Source: an uncultured Gaiellales bacterium (lineage in GTDB: Bacteria > Actinomycetota > Thermoleophilia > BMS3ABIN01). From it: DNA of 64,000 nt. Position numbers and translations under genes: made by a program. Below, one piece after another: positions 11,830 through 64,000 of this stretch (its first letter is position 1; every line of letters starts with the position of its first letter). The stretch covers positions 13,306 to 77,305 of the forward strand of contig CAZCCR010000006.1 in assembly GCA_964497425.1 (NCBI GenBank), written 5' to 3'. Below the pieces are notes generated by a model. It did not search any database and was not told the DNA's origin. It saw nothing but the letters and a program-made list of their open reading frames with translations.

Positions 11830-12750
11830 ATGTACGAACAGATATCAAGGAACAAGCGGCTGTCGTACCTTCTGATCGTGGTCGTGGCAGCCCTGCTGCT
11901 GATACTGGGCTTTGCCATCGGCTATGCCACCGGCTTCGGCTATTTCGGGGTCATTTTCGCCGCCGCCGTGGCGGTGGTCATGGGCCTCACCAGCTACTAC
12001 AAGGGCGATCGCATGGTCCTTGCCGCCAGCCACGCCCGGCGCGTCACCCATGACGATGAGCCTCAGCTGTTCAACGTGGTGGAGGAGATGGCTATCGCCT
12101 CGGGCAACCCCATGCCCGTGGTCTATGTCATCCCCGATTCCGCCCCCAACGCCTTCGCCACCGGCAGGGACCCGGAGCATGCCTCCATCGCCGTGACCCA
12201 GGGCCTGATGGACAAGCTCAACCGCGAGGAGCTCCAGGGGGTGATCGGCCACGAGATGTCCCACGTGCGCAACTACGACATCCTCTACGCGACGCTGGTG
12301 GGGATACTGGTGGGGGCCATCGTGCTCATGGCCGACTTCTTCCTGCGCTGGGGGTTCTGGACCGGGGGCGGGCGGCGGGGCCGTAGCAGCAGCAGCGGCG
12401 GCGGGTATTTCCAGATCATCATGCTGGTGGTGGCCATCGTGGCGGCCATCCTGGCGCCGCTGGCGGCGCGGGCGGTGCAGATGGCCATCTCGCGCCGGCG
12501 CGAGTACCTGGCGGACGCCTCCTCCGTTGAACTCACCCGCAACCCGCTGGGGCTGGCCAGCGCCCTGGAGAAGATCGACCGGGACCAGGAGGTGCTGGAG
12601 GTGGCCAACCGCGCCACCGCCCACCTCTACATCGCCAACCCGGTGAAGAAGTTCGAGAAGAGGGCGAAGAGCGTCTTCAGCAGCCACCCGCCCATCCAAA
12701 TGCGCATCCAGGCGCTGAGGTCCATGGCCTCCATGCCCGCCCGGGGCTGA
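11830..12750 (+). CDS. htpX: M48 zinc metalloprotease HtpX
   Basis: PNAFATGR, GHEMSH (HExxH), SRRREYLAD, FSSHPP; canonical lemA-htpX pair. Confidence 0.93.
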   Translation: MYEQISRNKRLSYLLIVVVAALLLILGFAIGYATGFGYFGVIFAAAVAVVMGLTSYYKGDRMVLAASHARRVTHDDEPQLFNVVEEMAIASGNPMPVVYVIPDSAPNAFATGRDPEHASIAVTQGLMDKLNREELQGVIGHEMSHVRNYDILYATLVGILVGAIVLMADFFLRWGFWTGGGRRGRSSSSGGGYFQIIMLVVAIVAAILAPLAARAVQMAISRRREYLADASSVELTRNPLGLASALEKIDRDQEVLEVANRATAHLYIANPVKKFEKRAKSVFSSHPPIQMRIQALRSMASMPARG

Positions 12751-32275: not shown

Positions 32276-32352
32276 TGGCGCCCCGGGAAGGATTCGAACC
32301 TTCGACCTACCGCTTAGGAGGCGGTCGCTCTGATCCCCTGAGCTACCGGGGC
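32276..32352 (-). tRNA. tRNA-Arg (anticodon CCT)
   Basis: Minus strand GCCCCGGTAGCTCAGGGGATCAGAGCGACCGCCT-CCT-AAGCGGTAGGTCGAAGGTTCGAATCCTTCCCGGGGCGCCA: 7-bp acceptor stem, TTCGAA T-loop, encoded CCA, 77 nt. Confidence 0.96.
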
Positions 32353-43540: not shown

Positions 43541-44074
43541 TCAGCGGTGACGTGATTCGTCGCGGCAGAGTGTCCTGCCGTCGACCCGGTCGGCCCGGGA
43601 CTCCATCACCGGTTCACCGCAGCCGTCGCAGCGCACCGACCGCATGATGCGGGCCTCGGCGGGCAGCTCCATGGACGTTTCCGATATATCGAAAAGCTCA
43701 TCCGTGCGAGCGGCGAGCACCCTGTCGGTCCTTTCCTTCTTGCTTGCCCCTTCAGCCTGCCTCATGAAGCCCCAGCGCAGGGAGACGCGCACCGCCCTGC
43801 CTTCGTCCCTGCGGGCGAAGGTAAAGACCTGTTTACCCCAGTCGCGGAAGTAGAGGTTGCCTTTGCCGAAGGTGGCTCCGGCCAGATATTGCACCGCGTC
43901 CACGCTGCAGCTGTCGTTCTCGACGATGGCTATCAGCTCTTCGTCGCGGGCGCGCTCCACGCCCAGCCGCCTGAGCCCGGCCAGCGTGGCGCGGTAGCCG
44001 ATGGCCAGTCCCGGGCAGAGATGCCCGTGGAACGCGGTCAGCTGTTCAAGGGTTTCCTTGTCGTCGTCCATCAT
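43541..44074 (-). CDS. fmdE: FmdE (formylmethanofuran dehydrogenase subunit E-like) protein with C-terminal finger
   Basis: FHGHLCPGLAIGYR; ENDSCSVDAVQ; TFGKGNL; CDGCGEPVME. Confidence 0.88.
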   Translation of the reverse strand: MMDDDKETLEQLTAFHGHLCPGLAIGYRATLAGLRRLGVERARDEELIAIVENDSCSVDAVQYLAGATFGKGNLYFRDWGKQVFTFARRDEGRAVRVSLRWGFMRQAEGASKKERTDRVLAARTDELFDISETSMELPAEARIMRSVRCDGCGEPVMESRADRVDGRTLCRDESRHR

Positions 44075-44950: not shown

Positions 44951-45849
<899 letters not shown>

Positions 45850-45930
45850 CCCTGCATCATAAAGGTTCAGGGGAGCAGGTTTCCAGCCCGACAGGCTGGT
45901 TTCAGCCGTGGCGAAAGAGGGATTAAGATA

Positions 45931-48396
45931 ATGATGGGAAAAGAGGTCATGCAGGTGCCAGGAGACTTGAGAAAAATCATCATACCCATCGCAGGCATGA
46001 GTTGCGCCGCCTGCGTGGAGCGCAACCAGAAGGCGCTGAGGGATGTCCCCGGCGTGGTCAGGGCCGAGGTGAACTTCGCTACGGAGAAGGCGGCGATCGA
46101 GTACGACCCGGCAGAGACTTCCCCCGGCAGGCTGGTCGCGGCCATAGAGGATGCCGGTTATTCGGCGATCACGGACAAGGTCACCGTCCCCGTGGGTGGC
46201 ATGACCTGCGCCTCGTGCGTGGAGCATGTGGAGAAAGCCCTGCGGGCGGTGGACGGGGTCATAAGCGCTTCGGTGAACCTGGCGACGGAGAAGGCGACGG
46301 TGGAGTACGCCGCCGGCGTGGTGGCCATGGCGGACGTCAGGCGGGCCATCGAAGGGGCGGGTTATACGGTGCTGGCGACCGGGGACGAGGGGCCGGCGGG
46401 GGATGAAGACGCGGAGGCGCGCCTGCGGAGTCAGCAGTACCGCCGCCTGCAGCTGAAGGTGCTGGTGGGGGCGATCCTATCTGTCCTCGTCTTTGCCGGC
46501 AGCTTCGAATGGTTCGGCGGGTTGGGGCCGCTGAGCAACCCTTACGTGCTCTGGGCCCTGGCCACGCCGGTGCAGTTCTGGGTCGGCAGGCAGTTCTATA
46601 CCGGGGCCATCGCCGCGGCACGCCACCGTACCACCAACATGAACACGCTGGTGGCCGTGGGTTCCTCCTCGGCCTATTTCTACAGCGTGGCGGCGGTGCT
46701 CTTCCCGTCCTTCTTCGAGGCGCGGGGGCTGGGGGCGCCGGTATACTTCGATACTGCCGCCGTGATCATCACCCTCATCCTGTTCGGCCGCATGCTGGAG
46801 GCCAGGGCCAAGGGGCAGACATCGGATGCCATCAGGAAGCTGATCGGTCTCAGGCCGAAGACGGCGCGGGTCATCCGCGATGGAGAGGAAGCGGACATAC
46901 CGGTGGAGGATGTGCGCGTGGGCGACACGGTGCTGGTCAGGCCCGGGGAGAGCGTGCCTGTCGACGGCGTGGTCCTGGAGGGCGAGTCCAGCATCGACGA
47001 ATCGATGATCACCGGCGAGAGCATGCCCGTGGGAAAGCATCCCGGTGACGAGGTCATCGGCGCCACCATCAACCGGATGGGCAGCTTCAGGTTCGAGGCG
47101 GTGAGGGTGGGCAGGGACACTGCCCTGGCCAACATCATCCGTCTGGTCCAGGAGGCACAGGGCTCCAAGCCGCCCATCGCCCGCATGGCCGATGTCATCG
47201 CCAGCTACTTCGTGCCGGCCGTGTTCGCCATAGCCACGGTCACTTTCGTCATCTGGTTCGCCTTCGGGCCCGAGCCGGCTTTCACCGTGGCCCTGCTCAA
47301 CTTCGTGGCGGTGCTGATAATTGCCTGCCCCTGCGCCCTGGGCCTGGCCACGCCCACCGCCGTGATGGTGGGGACGGGCAAGGGGGCGGAAGAGGGCATC
47401 CTCATCCGGGGCGGGGACGCCCTGGAGACGGCGCACAAGCTTGACACGGTGGTGCTGGACAAGACCGGCACCCTTACCCGGGGTGAGCCTTCCCTCACCG
47501 ATGTACTCCCGCTCGGCGGGGATGAGGAGGAGGTGCTGCGGCTGGTGGCTTCGGTGGAGAGGGGTTCGGAGCATCCTTTGGGTGAGGCCATAGTCAGCGG
47601 CGCCCGCGCCCGCGGCCTGGAGCTGGCGGAGGCTTCCTCCTTCGAGGCGGTCGCCGGCCAGGGCGTGGCGGCGGAGGTGGAAGGGCATCCGGTCCTGGTG
47701 GGCAACGCCGCCATGTTCGCCGCCAGGGGTCTCGAACTGGACGGTCTGGCGCCGGCAGCCGACGGCCTTTCCCGTCAGGGGAAGACCCCCATGTTCGTAG
47801 CGGTCGATGGTCGGCCAGCCGCCGTAATCGGGGTGGCGGATACGATGAAGGATAGCTCGGGCGATGCCGTACAGAGCATGAGGCGGATGGGGCTGGAAGT
47901 GGTGATGCTCACCGGCGACAACCGGGCTACCGCTGAGGCGGTGGGCAGGGAAGCCGGGGTGGACCGGGTGCTGTCGGAAGTGCTTCCCGCCGGCAAGGCG
48001 CGCGAGGTCAGGCGGCTGCAGCAGGAGGAGAAGAAGGTGGCCATGGTCGGTGACGGTATAAACGATGCGCCGGCGCTGGCACAGGCCGACGTGGGCATAG
48101 CCATCGGCACCGGGACGGATGTGGCCATCGAGGCCGGAGACATCACCCTCATCTCCGGCGACCTCAGGGGCGTCTCCACCGCCATAGCGCTCAGCCGGCG
48201 CACCATCCAGATAATCAGGCAGAACCTCTTCTGGGCCTTCGCCTATAACACGGCGCTCATCCCCGTGGCCGCCGGGCTGCTCTATCCCTTCTTCGGCGTG
48301 ACGCTCAACCCCATGTTCGCCGCGGCCGCCATGGGGCTCTCGTCGGTGACGGTCGTCAGCAACTCCCTGCGGCTGAGGCGTTTCAGGCCGGTCTAA
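45931..48396 (+). CDS. copA: Cu(I)-translocating P1B-1 ATPase with two HMA domains
   Basis: GMSCAAC and GMTCASC; TGES; CPCALGLA; DKTGT; GDGINDAPA; YN and MGLSS. Real start near 45931-45949. Confidence 0.96.
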
Positions 48397-49309: not shown

Positions 49310-49408
49310 TGCGCCGTCCACACGCAGAGGGGTGTCGGTTGCGCCGCCGGAGGCCTGGTTCCTTCAAGCGGCTCCCTCGTCCAACGCGATAACGGGAGAG
49401 TGATTGCC

Positions 49409-50461
49409 ATGTCGAGATTCTGGAAGTACCTGGTTCTGACGGCGTTGTTGATCGGTCTGCTGGCGCCGACGGCGCTGGTGGCCACCGGCTGCGGTGGGGA
49501 GACCACGACGACGGCGGCGACGGCTACGAAGGCTGCTGTCGATTCGGCGGCGCTGGCGGAACGGGCCAATGAAGTGCTCTCTGCCGACCCGGGCGACTAT
49601 GCGGGCAACTCCATCAAGGCCCCGGACCTTCAAGCGATACTGAAGGACCCGGCCCGGAAGGATTCCTTTTTCGTGCTCGATGTCCGCGCCGCCAAGGATT
49701 ACGACGCGGGTCATATCGAGGGAGCCACCAACGTGCCCTTCGCCAAGTGGGCTGCACCTGACAGCCTGAGCGCCCTGCCCAAGGACAAGACAATCGCCGT
49801 GGTCTGTTACACGGGACACACTGCTGCCGAGGTCGTCGGCGGCCTGCGCATGCTTGGGTATGACGCCATCGCCGTCCGTGGCGGGATGCTGGGCTGGGTA
49901 TCGAACGATACTACCCGGAAGGTGGCGGATTCCCTTCTGGCGGCTGACAACCCTACGGTGAACACTCCGGCCGGGACTTCCGCCAAGGGAACGTCCAGCG
50001 GCAAGCTGAGCGCGCCCTCTGATGACGTCTATGAAGCCATCGCCGGCAAGGCCAACACGGACATGGGCAGCATGCCCACCAGCGGCGATTACGCCAACAA
50101 CGTCATCACCGCCGATGCGCTCAAGGCGATGCTGGATGACCCTGCAAAGAAGGACAGTCTTTTCCTGCTGGATATCCGCAGCGCCAAGGACTACGAGACG
50201 GTCGGACACATCGAAGGGGCGACCAACATCCCCTTCGCCGATGTGGCGGTGCCGGACAACCTGGCGCGGCTGCCGAAGGACAAGAAGATCATAGTCATCT
50301 GTTACACGGGCAACACGGCTGCGCAGACCACCATGATCCTGAGGATACTGGGATACGACGCGGCGGTAATGAAATACGGCTCCATGGGCTGGACGGTGAC
50401 GCCCAACACCCAGGGGTTCGTCGACTACATAACCACCGCCAACTGCCCGGTGGTGCAGTAA
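49409..50461 (+). CDS. Tandem-rhodanese lipoprotein (both domains keep Cys)
   Basis: Lipobox LVATG-C; DVR..DY..GHIEGA; active-site loops VCYTGHT and ICYTGNT. Confidence 0.88.
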   Translation: MSRFWKYLVLTALLIGLLAPTALVATGCGGETTTTAATATKAAVDSAALAERANEVLSADPGDYAGNSIKAPDLQAILKDPARKDSFFVLDVRAAKDYDAGHIEGATNVPFAKWAAPDSLSALPKDKTIAVVCYTGHTAAEVVGGLRMLGYDAIAVRGGMLGWVSNDTTRKVADSLLAADNPTVNTPAGTSAKGTSSGKLSAPSDDVYEAIAGKANTDMGSMPTSGDYANNVITADALKAMLDDPAKKDSLFLLDIRSAKDYETVGHIEGATNIPFADVAVPDNLARLPKDKKIIVICYTGNTAAQTTMILRILGYDAAVMKYGSMGWTVTPNTQGFVDYITTANCPVVQ

Positions 50462-50550: not shown

Positions 50551-50725
50551 GTTCCGGTCAGGCGGCAGCCTCTGCTATAATGGCTGTACCGTTTCCCATA
50601 TGGTCGGCGGCGGCTATGATGCGCGGGACCGCGCCGGATATGTGGGACGGTTTCTGTTTGCAGGGAAAGAGAAAGGCTATGTCGGGCGCCGGACCGTGGG
50701 TCTGGTAACCGGCTGGAAGACAGCA

Positions 50726-51757
50726 ATGGATAATCAGCGAAGCGGCACAAGGCGACATGAGAGGGAAGAATCGTACCGGAAGGCGCAATATCCGGCGGAG
50801 AGCGCCGAGCTTGCCCGTTATCGGCAGGTGATCGGGGACCGGGCGATGGAGGTGCTGGCTTCCACGCCCATGAGCGACCATGATTTCATCGCCAACGGCC
50901 TTTACGGCCAGGAACTGGCCCGGCGGCTGACAAGGGAAAGCGAAGCCGGAAGGTTCTTCCTGCTGGACGTGCGGCGACGCGAGGATTTCGAAAGATGCCA
51001 TATCCAGGGCGCAGTCAGGGTGGATTTCCATCGCTGGGCCGAACCGGGGAATCTGGCTTTGCTGCCGCGGGACAGGAAGATAGTGGTGCTGAGCTATGCC
51101 GGTCTGGCGGCGGCCCAGGTTGCTTCGGGCCTGAGGCTGCTGGGGTACGACGCCGTGGTGGTGAAGACGGGCATGAACGGGTGGAAGCGTAACGACGGCA
51201 CCGGCAAGGTGCTGGAAGATATCGGGGCAGCCGCCTACCCGGTGGAACGGAAACCTCCCGAGCCGTTCGCCCCCGCTCCGGAGATGGAGTTCCGGCAGCC
51301 GTCCGGCGAGGAGTTCAGGATCATCGCCGAGAGGGCGGCGCAGGTCTTCAGGCGCGCGCCGCGGGACGGCTCCTTCAGGCACAACACCATAGAAGCGGGG
51401 TACCTCCACCGGCAGTTGCAGAACGGCGGCGGCGACAGGTACTTCATCCTGGACCTCAGGCGCGAGGAGGACTTCGAGGGGGTCGGCCACATCGGCGGCG
51501 CCAGCCAGGTCGATTTCACCGCCGCCATGGTGGAAGAGAACTTCAGCCGGCTGCCGCGGGATCGCAGGATCGTGGTGGTCTGTTACACGGGCAACCTGGC
51601 GGCGCAGCTGGTCACGGTCCTGCGCCTGCTGGGCTTCGATGCCGTGGCCCTGAGGTACGGGATGATAGGTTGGACCATGACCCCCACCACCAGGCTGTAT
51701 CTCAAGGACATCGAATCCGCCGACTACCCCGTGGTCTCACGCGCAGAAGATAACTGA
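50726..51757 (+). CDS. Cytoplasmic tandem-rhodanese protein, paralogue of the upstream gene
   Basis: DVRRREDFERCHIQGA; first loop LSYAGLA (Cys to Ser), second VCYTGNL. Extended -10 TGCTATAAT at 50573. Start uncertain (50600, 50726 or later). Confidence 0.8.
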   Translation: MDNQRSGTRRHEREESYRKAQYPAESAELARYRQVIGDRAMEVLASTPMSDHDFIANGLYGQELARRLTRESEAGRFFLLDVRRREDFERCHIQGAVRVDFHRWAEPGNLALLPRDRKIVVLSYAGLAAAQVASGLRLLGYDAVVVKTGMNGWKRNDGTGKVLEDIGAAAYPVERKPPEPFAPAPEMEFRQPSGEEFRIIAERAAQVFRRAPRDGSFRHNTIEAGYLHRQLQNGGGDRYFILDLRREEDFEGVGHIGGASQVDFTAAMVEENFSRLPRDRRIVVVCYTGNLAAQLVTVLRLLGFDAVALRYGMIGWTMTPTTRLYLKDIESADYPVVSRAEDN

Positions 51758-62070: not shown

Positions 62071-62646
62071 AAATGAAACACGTCAAAGACGCATCCAGTC
62101 GTCCGCCCGGCCGCAGGTTTGCAGAAGCAGGAGGAAATCCGCCCGGGCATGAGGGAAAAACCTGTCCGGAACCACCGGTGAATGGCGCCAGAATCAAATA
62201 CCCCAAGGGGTTATCGATAAATGTCGTATAGGGGGTTTCCCTGAGAAAAATAAAATAAAATTACTATAAAACCGGGGGGAAATGATGAAAAATAATCATG
62301 TAAAGTTTGAAAATCGGAGTAGACTAGTTGCAATTAAACCATATATTAAGCGTATCTATCCATTCACCGGGGGGTGAGTGGGAAAAGAGGGAAGCGGTTA
62401 TTGGGCGCCTGAGACGGTCATCTTCCTTAAAACGGGGATCGGCCCTTCCTCCTCTCAGTGATAGTCGGATAACCAACCTCCAGTCTCCCGCCTCCAGGCT
62501 CAAGTGGGAATAGTGCGCTTGATATGAATGGGTGCGAGGAGGTGAATCAACAGACTGACTCACTTGCGTTCGATCGTAAGACCCAGACCAAGCCTTCTCC
62601 GACGGGAGAAGCATTGTTTTATAAACGTTAGAAAGAGGGTGAAGGA

Positions 62647-64000
62647 ATGAAGGTTGCCATAAGTGAAAACAAGTGGCAGTTCGCACTACTGGCGGTGCCG
62701 CTTGTTCTTATCCTGGCATTGGCAATCGCCACGGGCAGCATGTCCGGGGCGGCCGATGCCGCTTATGGTGTCTATGGTTGTGGCGGCGCCTATGGCAGTG
62801 GTTGCGATCAGGCTCCGTCTGCCAGTCTCGGCGTCAGCAACCAGCTGCTGTATGTCGCCAATGGTGACGCCAGCAATGTCGCCGTGATCGACGTAGGCAC
62901 CATGAACATCGTGGACTACATCCCCGTGACCTGTGCTCCCGACAACCTTGCCGGGCCTCTGGGCATGTACTGGGAGATCCACGGTGTGGTTCCGTCAAAC
63001 GACAGGCAGAGCATCTACGCCGTAGGCGCCCTGTCGGGCGACGCCAACTCCAGCGACCTGTACCAGATGGATGTCAAGACAGGTACCGAGATCCGCAGGA
63101 TACCGATGACCAGTTCGCTGGTCGGTTACTGCGGCCTGGAGTATGACCTGAACGACACCACCTCCGACAACCTGGTTGCCGCCGACATGGCCGCCGGCCC
63201 CGGCGTGGTAGCCAGCCTGGAAGCCAACTGGTCCCCCGCTTACGGCGGACCGCTGCCTCCGGGCTCACTGCCGGTGACCCAGGGTGGATGGCAGGAGAAC
63301 AGCCTCTCGGCTGGCACCGCCACCAACCATATCTCCACCGACTTCGATGGAGACGGAGAGTCCAGCACCTGCGGTATCAGCTGGAACGCCTCCGGCACCA
63401 CCGGCTATGCGTCCCTGATGTGGGATCCGGCCAGCTCGGTGACCATCGACTGGGCCGGCAGCAAGACGGCTACTGGTGAGAACCCCGCCCTGCCGGGCGC
63501 GGTCATCCATCAGAACACCGCCGCCAAGAGCCGTGACCTGCTGTTCGTCACCGGCGGAAGCGGCGGCTTCATCGAGATAGTTGACATGACCACCAACTCC
63601 ACAGTCGGCAGCATCGACGTAGCGTCTCTGACCGGTGTACCTTCGGCCGAGCCGCACAGCGTCGATATCGCTCCCGGCAACGACAACCTGCTGTACGCCA
63701 TGGTGCGTCAGGTGCCGAACCCGACTCCGGGCGGCGCCTCCGCGTTGCTGATCGATGTCAGCAACATCGCCGCGCCTAACGTAGTCGCGGGCGTCACCGG
63801 CCTGAACAAGGCTGCTTGCGGCATCTATGCCGATTACGACAAGAGCCTCTACTACCAGGCCAACGGCAGCGTCGCCGCCGGCAAGATGGCTCTGGTCGCC
63901 AACGGTAACGACAGCAGTGTGGCCACCGTCGACTTCGACTCGATGTCGGTCACGGGTACCATCCCCATCCCGCGTGCCCCCGACAACCTTGCCGGGCCTC
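62647..64000 (+). CDS. Secreted YVTN/YncE-like beta-propeller protein with at least two tandem modules (3' truncated; absent from the ORF track)
   Basis: ATG 62647 after GAAAGAGGGTGAAGGA; open to the window end (451 codons). Signal peptide, then LYVANGDASNVAVID. The module restarts near 63885 (LVANGNDSSVATVD...APDNLAGP), with nucleotide repeat CCCGACAACCTTGCCGGGCCTC at ~62938 and ~63979. Confidence 0.85.
   Translation, partial: MKVAISENKWQFALLAVPLVLILALAIATGSMSGAADAAYGVYGCGGAYGSGCDQAPSASLGVSNQLLYVANGDASNVAVIDVGTMNIVDYIPVTCAPDNLAGPLGMYWEIHGVVPSNDRQSIYAVGALSGDANSSDLYQMDVKTGTEIRRIPMTSSLVGYCGLEYDLNDTTSDNLVAADMAAGPGVVASLEANWSPAYGGPLPPGSLPVTQGGWQENSLSAGTATNHISTDFDGDGESSTCGISWNASGTTGYASLMWDPASSVTIDWAGSKTATGENPALPGAVIHQNTAAKSRDLLFVTGGSGGFIEIVDMTTNSTVGSIDVASLTGVPSAEPHSVDIAPGNDNLLYAMVRQVPNPTPGGASALLIDVSNIAAPNVVAGVTGLNKAACGIYADYDKSLYYQANGSVAAGKMALVANGNDSSVATVDFDSMSVTGTIPIPRAPDNLAGP

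Follow-up and report, generated by a model that had tools for sequence, protein, structure and literature searches.

The 64,000-nucleotide window that we analyse here (contig CAZCCR010000006.1, from an uncultured Gaiellales bacterium) ends within a gene, at 62647 to 64000 on the plus strand, for a beta-propeller protein in which each of six blades presents a His or a Cys at the same end of its innermost strand. We consider that these three His and three Cys residues, together with two Met residues one strand further out, are best explained as a hub site that holds a soft metal, a reading to which we assign a probability of about 0.5. The first-pass annotation of this DNA had described a secreted tandem propeller with His or Cys at matching positions of six consecutive blades. 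That observation is confirmed, and is stronger than first described: the ring takes in all six blades, it is invariant family-wide, it is joined by two extra Met residues, and a natural knockout of it exists.

A six-bladed propeller with one His or Cys on each blade

The open reading frame is real, as had been proposed: it starts with an ATG at 62647, preceded by GAAAGAGGGTGAAGG and behind a strong ribosome-binding site, remains open for 451 codons to base 64000, and runs past the end of the window. A chance or non-coding frame is rejected, in view of the homologues, the high-confidence folds and the in-register statistics described below. The gene is organised as follows.

62647..64000, plus strand: propeller gene, cut by the window end; the complete product comprises two or more modules plus a C-terminal domain
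62647..62811, plus strand: predicted signal peptide or membrane anchor (residues 1 to about 38), then a Gly/Tyr/Cys-rich linker to about residue 55 (from the sequence, the model and homologues)
62812..63876, plus strand: propeller module 1 (residues 56-410), six-bladed and YVTN-type, with N-terminal strands that close the ring (AlphaFold, Foldseek, profile)
63877..64000, plus strand: start of module 2 (from about residue 411), which holds the second copy of APDNLAGP and continues on contig L027

We derived two AlphaFold models: one of the whole fragment (17 sequences; predicted local distance difference test score, pLDDT, 78.7 overall and for the most part above 85 in the propeller), and one of module 1 alone (39 sequences, pLDDT 92.1, predicted template modelling score 0.92). 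In both, 24 strands form six four-stranded blades that are closed by the N-terminal strands. Hence the six 'consecutive' blades of the first-pass annotation, which do carry the residues listed for them, are all the blades of the module; a seven-bladed YVTN propeller in which one blade lacks its residue is ruled out, both models having six.

The six motifs read as had been reported, namely EI-H112-GVV, GY-C162-GLE, ST-C242-GIS, VI-H288-QNT, EP-H337-SVD and AA-C391-GIY, so that the blade order of the ring residues is H-C-C-H-H-C. The positions of the six, and of the two Met residues that accompany them, are given below with their occurrence among homologues.

62980..62982, plus strand: H112, innermost strand of blade 1; 38 of the 38 homologues that cover the region
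63130..63132, plus strand: C162, innermost strand of blade 2; 38 of 39 (Ser in P0009)
63187..63189, plus strand: M181, where strand B of blade 2 ends, on the C162 face; 38 of 39 (Ile in P0009)
63370..63372, plus strand: C242, innermost strand of blade 3; 38 of 39 (Ala in P0009)
63418..63420, plus strand: M258, end of strand B of blade 3; 37 of 39 (Leu in P0009, Gln in P0011)
63508..63510, plus strand: H288, innermost strand of blade 4; 39 of 39
63655..63657, plus strand: H337, innermost strand of blade 5; 38 of 39 (Phe in P0009)
63817..63819, plus strand: C391, blade 6, where the innermost strand begins; 38 of 39 (Ser in P0009)

The topology is the same in both models: each blade contributes one ring residue, always from the same end of its innermost strand. 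By the AlphaFold strand assignments, five of the six residues occupy position 2 or 3 of strand A, and C391 sits two residues ahead of strand A of blade 6, which is short in the model. The placement of the ring at the P-x-G-[IV]-A site of YVTN blades, suggested in the first-pass annotation, is borne out by alignment of our family profile with the archaeal propeller 1L0Q, which puts each His or Cys on the variable x. An invariant Gly directly follows four of the six ring residues, as would be expected at the point of tightest packing around the axis. The six side chains would converge on the propeller axis, and, from the hairpin register, M181 and M258 would lie on the face of the strand A starts, one strand outside C162 and C242.

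Module 1 (355 residues) holds just four His and four Cys residues, and of these eight, six occupy the matching position, each on its own blade; the other two, C96 and H228, are not conserved. At a His plus Cys content of 2.3%, the chance of such an in-register arrangement is approximately 1e-10, or approximately 6e-9 after allowing for 45 registers.

The ring residues are conserved, and lost, as a set

The propeller family is small: it comprises 17 clusters in a collection of 5.8 billion proteins, roughly 20-30 propeller-carrying sequences in an exhaustive HMMER scan of 1.84 billion representatives, and 17 propeller loci in a genome scan. Its members all belong to uncultured Actinomycetota, for many of which the label is Thermoleophilia, or to 'bacterium BMS3Abin01'. 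The ring is kept in 38 of 39 relatives and in second modules, and the same six residues persist in a distant subfamily (P0022-P0031, P0161-P0179) that is just 25-31% identical to the module in the window. The conservation in homologues and second modules, which the first-pass annotation had asked to be checked, is thus strong. In an alignment of 27 modules, full or near invariance is limited to 23 of approximately 355 positions, the six ring residues plus M181 and M258 among them.

One protein in this comparison, P0009 (509 residues, encoded on a 2974-bp contig), differs at exactly six of the 23 conserved positions: C162S, M181I, C242A, M258L, H337F and C391S. By the hypergeometric distribution, six changes would all hit the eight Cys/His/Met positions with a probability of C(8,6)/C(23,6) = 2.8e-4. 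P0009 is otherwise a well-conserved propeller and thereby serves as a natural knockout of the site; its usual C-terminal domain is replaced by a Cys-rich tail in which a MopE-type 'putative metal-binding motif' scores 25.8 bits against a cut-off of 27. The one remaining exception among the 39 proteins is P0011, with Gln at the position of M258. This pattern argues that the eight Cys, His and Met residues are one functional unit, since a concerted loss points to one coherent site rather than to independent residues or to one disulfide plus a spare. It thus bears on the suggestion, also made in the first-pass annotation, that the Cys residues simply form disulfides: a single disulfide is argued against by the joint loss in P0009, and a C162-C242 pair could still form.

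A candidate soft-metal site at the hub

We hypothesize that a Cys3-His3(-Met2) ring at the hub of the propeller holds a soft metal. This is the best single explanation for the combination of the ligand set, the one-per-blade layout, the adjacent Gly residues, the survival of the ring through 70-75% sequence divergence and its joint loss in P0009. The metal would probably be Cu(I) or Zn, possibly with sulfide. Thiolate, imidazole and thioether groups are the usual ligands of Cu(I), which makes this ion attractive; Zn, in a Cys2His2 or Cys3His arrangement, would be the main alternative. The association with rhodaneses (see below) also makes a sulfide-containing cluster, or a metal-free persulfide relay, possible. 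The earlier proposal of an undescribed extracellular metalloprotein is plausible and in part supported: the residues with their register and conservation, the one-per-blade topology on six blades, the concerted loss and the gene neighbourhood stand as observations, and the bound metal is what we infer from them.

The location of the protein bears on how such a site could be loaded. A basic stretch, a hydrophobic stretch of about 20 residues and the motif AADA-AYG at the N-terminus are all kept in homologues, and it is from these features that we regard the propeller as a secreted, presumably extracytoplasmic protein, as the earlier description had it. In the AlphaFold model the N-terminus is a helix (residues 2-30), and the pLDDT falls below 50 at residues 30-52. 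A twin-arginine motif is not conserved among the homologues' N-termini, which suggests export by the general secretory (Sec) route, with folding and metal loading outside the cell. A Sec-exported protein that folds outside the cell is suited to loading with Cu or Zn rather than with a pre-assembled iron-sulfur cluster; on the same ground, an iron-sulfur protein exported by the twin-arginine route is unlikely.

In the mechanism that we envisage, the protein would be displayed on the cell surface, with a signal peptide or anchor, at least two six-bladed modules and a C-terminal domain that is used clade-wide. In each module, the six innermost strands would offer one His or Cys apiece at one mouth of the central channel, the two Met residues of blades 2 and 3 would join this ring from one strand further out, and the site so formed would hold one soft metal ion or a few, acquired extracellularly once Sec has exported the protein. 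The ring would be the functional centre, and the remaining surface would be free to diverge. A catalytic role may be supposed, as may a role for the neighbouring small peptide described below.

Several observations weigh against the metal site. C162 and C242 lie on adjacent blades, so that a disulfide is possible between them. The conserved gene cassette contains no metal chaperone, metal transporter or nos-type accessory gene, and the CopA-type ATPase in the window is 14 kb away, outside that cassette. What the cassette does encode, namely rhodanese-like surface proteins, an HPr-kinase-like protein and a peptide with Cys, speaks for sulfur or peptide chemistry no less than for metal handling. 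Furthermore, the long leader, the surface domain and the best structural match, to a surface-layer protein, are likewise what an envelope protein with a mainly structural role might show.

Tandem modules and a clade-wide C-terminal domain

The second module that had been noticed at the end of the window is indeed present. It begins near residue 411 (63877), and APDNLAGP occurs twice, at residues 97-104 and 444-451 (the latter at 63976-63999). The tandem arrangement is corroborated by contig L027 (2031 bp), whose bases 1-596 are 100% identical to window positions 63405-64000 and which extends the locus into module 2. There, module 2 is approximately 90% identical to module 1 at the DNA level and starts with the same H, C, C, H series; its last two ring residues (PHSVD, AACGIY) are read only after a one-base frame shift in GCCGCACCGCCG, at approximately 1195-1230 of L027 and after AVIHQNTAA. 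Misassembly of the near-identical repeats may account for this shift, or the disruption may be real; in several related contigs, too, the sequence stops within the tandem repeat. Among relatives, P0002 (505 residues) has one module, and P0018 (894 residues), the L010 paralogue (818 residues) and P0019 (1008 residues) have two.

On L027, module 2 is followed by a C-terminal domain of approximately 110 residues, a stop codon and then a gene for 43 residues. This domain (approximately residues 410-505 of P0002; frame 0 of L027) reads ...P[AS]LSLSKTxxYWASYADYxAGxLSVDYSIxN...YNVPxGVxSFxTxxYATAQ... and does not match any Pfam family. It is also found on more than 350 other exported proteins of the same clade, which are otherwise unrelated and of very different sizes; this distribution indicates that it may be a shared export, anchoring or display/sorting module of the clade.

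Relationship to known propellers

The protein is a divergent six-bladed propeller of the YVTN class that lies outside the named metallo-propeller families whose models it was scored against. A Pfam scan of the 451-residue product at E <= 1 gave nothing but a chance match to WDR11 (WD40-type). The YVTN repeat model TIGR02276 scores the window protein at 28.0 bits against a cut-off of 27.85, which is marginal, and its orthologue P0002 at 16.8 bits. Foldseek returns generic, mostly seven-bladed propellers (1L0Q, YncE, 6-phosphogluconolactonase, NosZ, WD40) at template modelling scores (TM-scores) of at most 0.62, and there is no close solved structure among the Foldseek and PDB sequence matches. 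The family profile does reach NHLRC2 chains at a weak E = 0.011-0.037, and Pfam records no NHL match.

The best match in both sequence and fold is 1L0Q, a YVTN propeller of a surface-layer (S-layer) protein from the archaeon Methanosarcina mazei. It is the sole PDB sequence match (phmmer E = 0.003), the family profile matches it over several repeats at E = 2.1e-9, and the Foldseek E-value is 1.7e-14. The two proteins share the repeat ...lYVan..s..vsviD..t..v...i.v...P-x-G-[IV]-A, both are extracytoplasmic (predicted so for the window protein), and in both a small beta-rich domain follows. On the other hand, 1L0Q has seven blades against six here, with TM-scores of 0.5-0.6, it lacks the invariant His or Cys that every blade of the window family has at the x of the motif, and it lacks the 30-residue insertion in blade 2 of that family.

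This resemblance raises the alternative that we are dealing with a structural, S-layer-like envelope protein that does not handle any ligand and in which the ring merely stabilises the hub, be it by structural Zn, a C162-C242 disulfide or hydrogen bonds. The tandem modules, followed by the domain that recurs on so many other proteins of the clade, are in keeping with that, as are the fast divergence of the surface, the paralogues and tandem duplications, the long conserved leader with its Shine-Dalgarno-like motif (see below), and neighbours that include a SurA/PrsA-like foldase and the envelope genes Wzy_C, BacA and VTT. However, a structural role leaves unexplained why eight soft-ligand residues should be the most conserved amid 70-75% sequence change, and how P0009 can be a well-conserved propeller despite six losses. 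In addition, an odd number of Cys residues cannot all pair, the blade of C391 lies opposite that of C242, and S-layer proteins are typically poor in Cys. We consider a purely structural ring to be a serious but unlikely rival of the metal site.

Metal-binding hubs themselves are well known. NosZ, the N2O reductase, holds its Cu4S cluster by means of His residues on innermost propeller strands, and metal also lies on or near the propeller axis, ligated by several blades, in thiocyanate dehydrogenase (Cu3), SBP56/methanethiol oxidase, galactose oxidase (Cu), the amidating lyase (Zn-His3) and the Zn chaperone AztD. The last-named lyase, peptidyl-alpha-hydroxyglycine alpha-amidating lyase, is also six-bladed, an NHL-repeat enzyme with a Zn-His3 site and catalytic Tyr and Arg that acts on peptides. 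We are aware of no Cys3His3 ring among these hub-metal propellers, and neither the Pfam scan (E <= 1) nor the family models detect a sequence relation between them and the window protein.

The likeness to NosZ is one of principle, a metal-sulfide cluster at the hub of an extracytoplasmic protein of the same broad fold class; NosZ chains are among the Foldseek matches, at a query TM-score of up to 0.60. NosZ differs in having seven blades with seven His ligands and no Cys, compared with three His and three Cys on six blades here. The cupredoxin CuA domain of NosZ is not seen in the window protein, and the full-length relatives P0002, P0018 and P0023 are without any Pfam domain; genes of the nosDFYL type are missing from the called neighbours of related loci. 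Formal membership was rejected for the following families: the L-NosZ model (NF052460) gives 12.6 bits against a cut-off of 700; AztD (NF038015) 19.7 against 400, over residues 410-450 alone (a generic YVTN repeat); the pyrroloquinoline quinone-dependent catabolism-associated propeller (TIGR03866) 33.5 against 287.3, with one repeat covered; and hydrazine synthase beta (NF052340) 16.9 against 560, again with one repeat covered. Pfam SBP56 did not match at E <= 1, which disposes of SBP56/methanethiol oxidase.

Hub sites underlie unusual metallo-enzymes such as N2O reductase, thiocyanate dehydrogenase and galactose oxidase, and we found no description of a six-fold Cys/His ring with Met caps in the literature that we searched; publications on ScmC, the HprK-related kinase, lactonase-type NosZ, and YVTN proteins with copper held nothing relevant to this propeller family. 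A bolder version of the metal reading is that the hub is a new centre, with Cu or a copper-sulfide cluster held by Cys3His3Met2 on six blades, similar to CuZ in principle, and working with surface rhodaneses and the Cys-Trp-Cys peptide in an extracellular redox or sulfur/metal transformation. We regard this as distinctly unlikely; were Cu or copper-sulfide to be bound, it would amount to a new inorganic cofactor environment, and the Actinomycetota concerned, a widespread and uncultured group of the subsurface and of hydrothermal sites, would have an extracellular activity that is new as well. With P0009 as a natural negative control and a defined, soluble module of 355 residues, the family lends itself to a direct test.

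The gene cassette: surface rhodaneses and a small Cys peptide

In related genomes, and in the same chromosomal slot for the distant subfamily, the propeller gene is followed by a cassette that encodes a small peptide, a lipoprotein, an HPr-kinase-like protein and a large surface protein. Called neighbours in L001, L004, L006, L024, L026 and L030 comprise the peptide and ParA-like, lipoprotein, HprK-like and rhodanese-like proteins. The first-pass annotation had suggested a look downstream for nosDFYL-like or cytochrome partners; the orthologous loci have none there. The cassette of propeller, 43-45-residue peptide, HPr-kinase-like protein and surface rhodaneses constitutes an uncharacterised system in its own right.

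The large surface protein, whose gene is often trailed by another copy of the peptide gene, did not match any entry in a PDB search. The profile of its repeat unit matches a rhodanese lipoprotein encoded in the window (E = 5e-13, Z = 3), so that the large surface proteins consist of tandem rhodanese-like units, with the Cys kept in the first half (SYCVTGHTE) and missing in the second. In addition, P0022 has a bona fide rhodanese domain (Pfam 32.9 bits, CQSGWR) fused to a propeller of the same family. We rejected a direct homology of the large surface proteins to the rhodanese part of P0022: BLASTP found a shared C-terminal domain alone, and the repeat profile missed P0022.

The small peptide, of 43-45 residues, is encoded directly 3' of the propeller gene in 13 distinct loci, including that of an unlinked paralogue; in most of these, an HPr-kinase-like gene and genes for surface rhodanese-like proteins adjoin it. 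At the window's own locus the gene lies on contig L027, approximately 1.3 kb beyond base 64000, and encodes 43 residues, MASEKSHREPYAKPELVKHDNLKEITFECPNWQCSVTVPPPPA, that end in ...ITFECPNWQCSVTVPPPPA. The copies noted are as follows.

L027 1859-1990: peptide gene of the window locus
L001 11584-11718: peptide gene
L004 11556-11720, 12320-12457 and 16157-16291: three peptide genes
L010 approximately 12500-12640: peptide gene
L028 6001-6231: stand-alone BMS3Abin01 peptide gene, divergent from a histidine kinase/sigma-54 response regulator pair

The consensus, ...REPYAKPELVKHxNLKxITFEC[PAS]xW[QS]CSVxVPPxP up to the stop (...FECPNWQCSV... in the window copy), has two invariant Cys residues, a leader-like YxxPxL motif and no signal peptide, and it does not match any family model. 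Differences over 17 distinct copies number 389/220/1164 at codon positions 1/2/3, a pattern by which the peptide is evidently translated and under strong purifying selection. It is limited to the same clade (53 clusters) and is nearly identical beside propellers that are just approximately 27% identical to one another. Nonetheless, the peptide is not exclusive to the propeller: its gene is also found 3' of genes for rhodanese-like surface proteins, often in several copies per locus, and alone on L028, adjoining hemC, hemA, a sirohaem-synthase-like gene and the cytochrome c biogenesis genes ccsA and resB. This occurrence alone and after non-propeller genes implies that it is no specific partner of the propeller.

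Two further members of the cassette bear on the peptide. The lipoprotein, of approximately 180 residues, ends in [IV]x[IV]VP[PSAG][APS]P before the stop, the same tail as that of the peptide, which suggests that the two share a C-terminal recognition signal. The HPr-kinase-like protein (341 residues) scores 56 bits against a cut-off of 200 with TIGR04352 and 33 against 125 with ScmC, both sub-cut-off; were the peptide a precursor of the RiPP type, this kinase-like protein would be its sole candidate maturation partner. The lipoprotein genes are located as follows.

L001 13171-13722: lipoprotein gene
L004 12628-13158: lipoprotein gene
L006 11907-12470: lipoprotein gene
L024 14015-14572: lipoprotein gene
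L026 11761-12327: lipoprotein gene

These partners give substance to two other explanations of the ring. One is a metal-free, sulfur-carrying or thiol-redox site, in which the Cys residues would take persulfide or polysulfide from the surface rhodaneses, or would swap disulfides with the CxxWxC peptide, and the His residues would act as bases. The presence of rhodanese-like surface proteins in the cassettes of both propeller subfamilies accords with such chemistry, and so do the match of the repeat-unit profile to the rhodanese lipoprotein, the fusion in P0022, and the two-Cys peptide gene that follows the propeller in its 13 loci. Yet the three His and two Met residues are kept, and lost, together with the Cys residues, which is more typical of metal ligation; the rhodanese fusion is a single case; and the peptide, found also after non-propeller genes and alone, is without a signal peptide while the propeller is predicted to be extracytoplasmic. 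We rate a sulfur-carrying ring as improbable, to much the same degree as a structural one.

The other explanation casts the propeller as a scaffold or enzyme for the co-encoded peptide, which would be exported and then docked at, or modified by, the hub site. The propeller-peptide pair is kept in two unrelated contexts of one genome: in L008, and in L010, where a second, unlinked propeller gene of BMS3Abin01 is surrounded by a sigma-54 regulator, a MacB-type ATP-binding cassette (ABC) transporter and Rho, and is directly followed by the peptide gene. The purifying selection on the peptide, its near-identity beside divergent propellers, its YxxPxL motif, the kinase-like gene nearby and the closeness of the MacB-type transporter in L010 would all be in keeping with this. 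There is also a likeness to quinohemoprotein amine dehydrogenase and methylamine dehydrogenase, in that a propeller gene accompanies a gene for a small Cys/Trp peptide without a Sec signal, with an ABC exporter nearby in one locus; the three-His Zn site of the six-bladed peptide-amidating lyase is a second analogue. In the comparison with the dehydrogenases, though, there is no radical S-adenosylmethionine maturase, haem subunit or sequence similarity, so this is an analogy alone, and to our knowledge the propeller subunits of those dehydrogenases carry no Cys/His ring. Given that rhodanese-like genes, too, are followed by the peptide gene and that one copy is on its own next to a sigma-54 two-component system, that the cassette contains no radical S-adenosylmethionine enzyme, protease or other maturase, and that the idea draws on analogies and assumes export of the peptide, we hold a peptide-directed propeller to be very unlikely. 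This reading is compatible with that of a metal site, and both can hold.

Other genes in the window

Upstream of the propeller gene, the window encodes UbiA, UbiD, Rex, HemL, HemB, an exported protein of 206-248 residues and a SurA/PrsA-like prolyl isomerase, in the same order as in BMS3Abin01 and other metagenome-assembled genomes. The first-pass annotation had invoked copper and sulfur-transfer genes in the region. A CopA-type ATPase and two rhodanese genes are indeed present, as follows, but they lie 11-17 kb upstream of the propeller gene, behind housekeeping genes, and the argument from context is weak.

45100-48396, plus strand: CopA-type P1B ATPase, with an E1-E2 ATPase domain, two HMA domains with GMxCxxC, and DKTGT; 14 kb upstream
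49400-50461, plus strand: tandem-rhodanese protein with a lipoprotein signal, LVATGCGG, and the loops CYTGHTA and CYTGNTA
50600-51757, plus strand: second tandem-rhodanese protein

The product of 49400-50461 resembles the large surface proteins of the cassette and, judged by these motifs, is a predicted extracytoplasmic sulfurtransferase. A copA/copZ linkage to the propeller is rejected on account of the distance of CopA and its position outside the cassette; CopA and the two rhodanese genes were not found in the flanks of related loci that were read, flanks that are shorter than the distance to these genes in the window.

Two other features of the window have no apparent link to the propeller.

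43541-44074, minus strand: FmdE-domain protein with a DksA/TraR-type zinc finger
32279-32352, minus strand: tRNA gene

A conserved leader precedes the propeller gene

A conserved non-coding gap of approximately 720 nucleotides separates the SurA/PrsA-like gene from the propeller gene. It gave no Rfam match, to a riboswitch or any other known RNA, at the gathering or a relaxed threshold, and RNAalifold found no covariation-supported structure in the leader. The approximately 400 nucleotides before the gene (62250-62646) are strongly conserved in orthologous loci and consist of an AT-rich block and a leader of approximately 300 nucleotides.

62320..62347, plus strand: promoter-like TAGACT-16-TATATT in the AT-rich block (consensus scan and five aligned orthologous upstream regions; a pattern match alone)
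62348..62646, plus strand: 5' leader, with the Shine-Dalgarno-like GGAGGTGA (approximately 62559-62566), GACCCAGACC (approximately 62579-62588), a hairpin at 62594-62611 and the ribosome-binding site GAGGGTGAAGG

Both GGAGGTGA and GACCCAGACC recur 5' of 15 propeller genes, including those of the distant subfamily and the unlinked paralogue. The leader may serve to stabilise the mRNA of a gene that is highly expressed.

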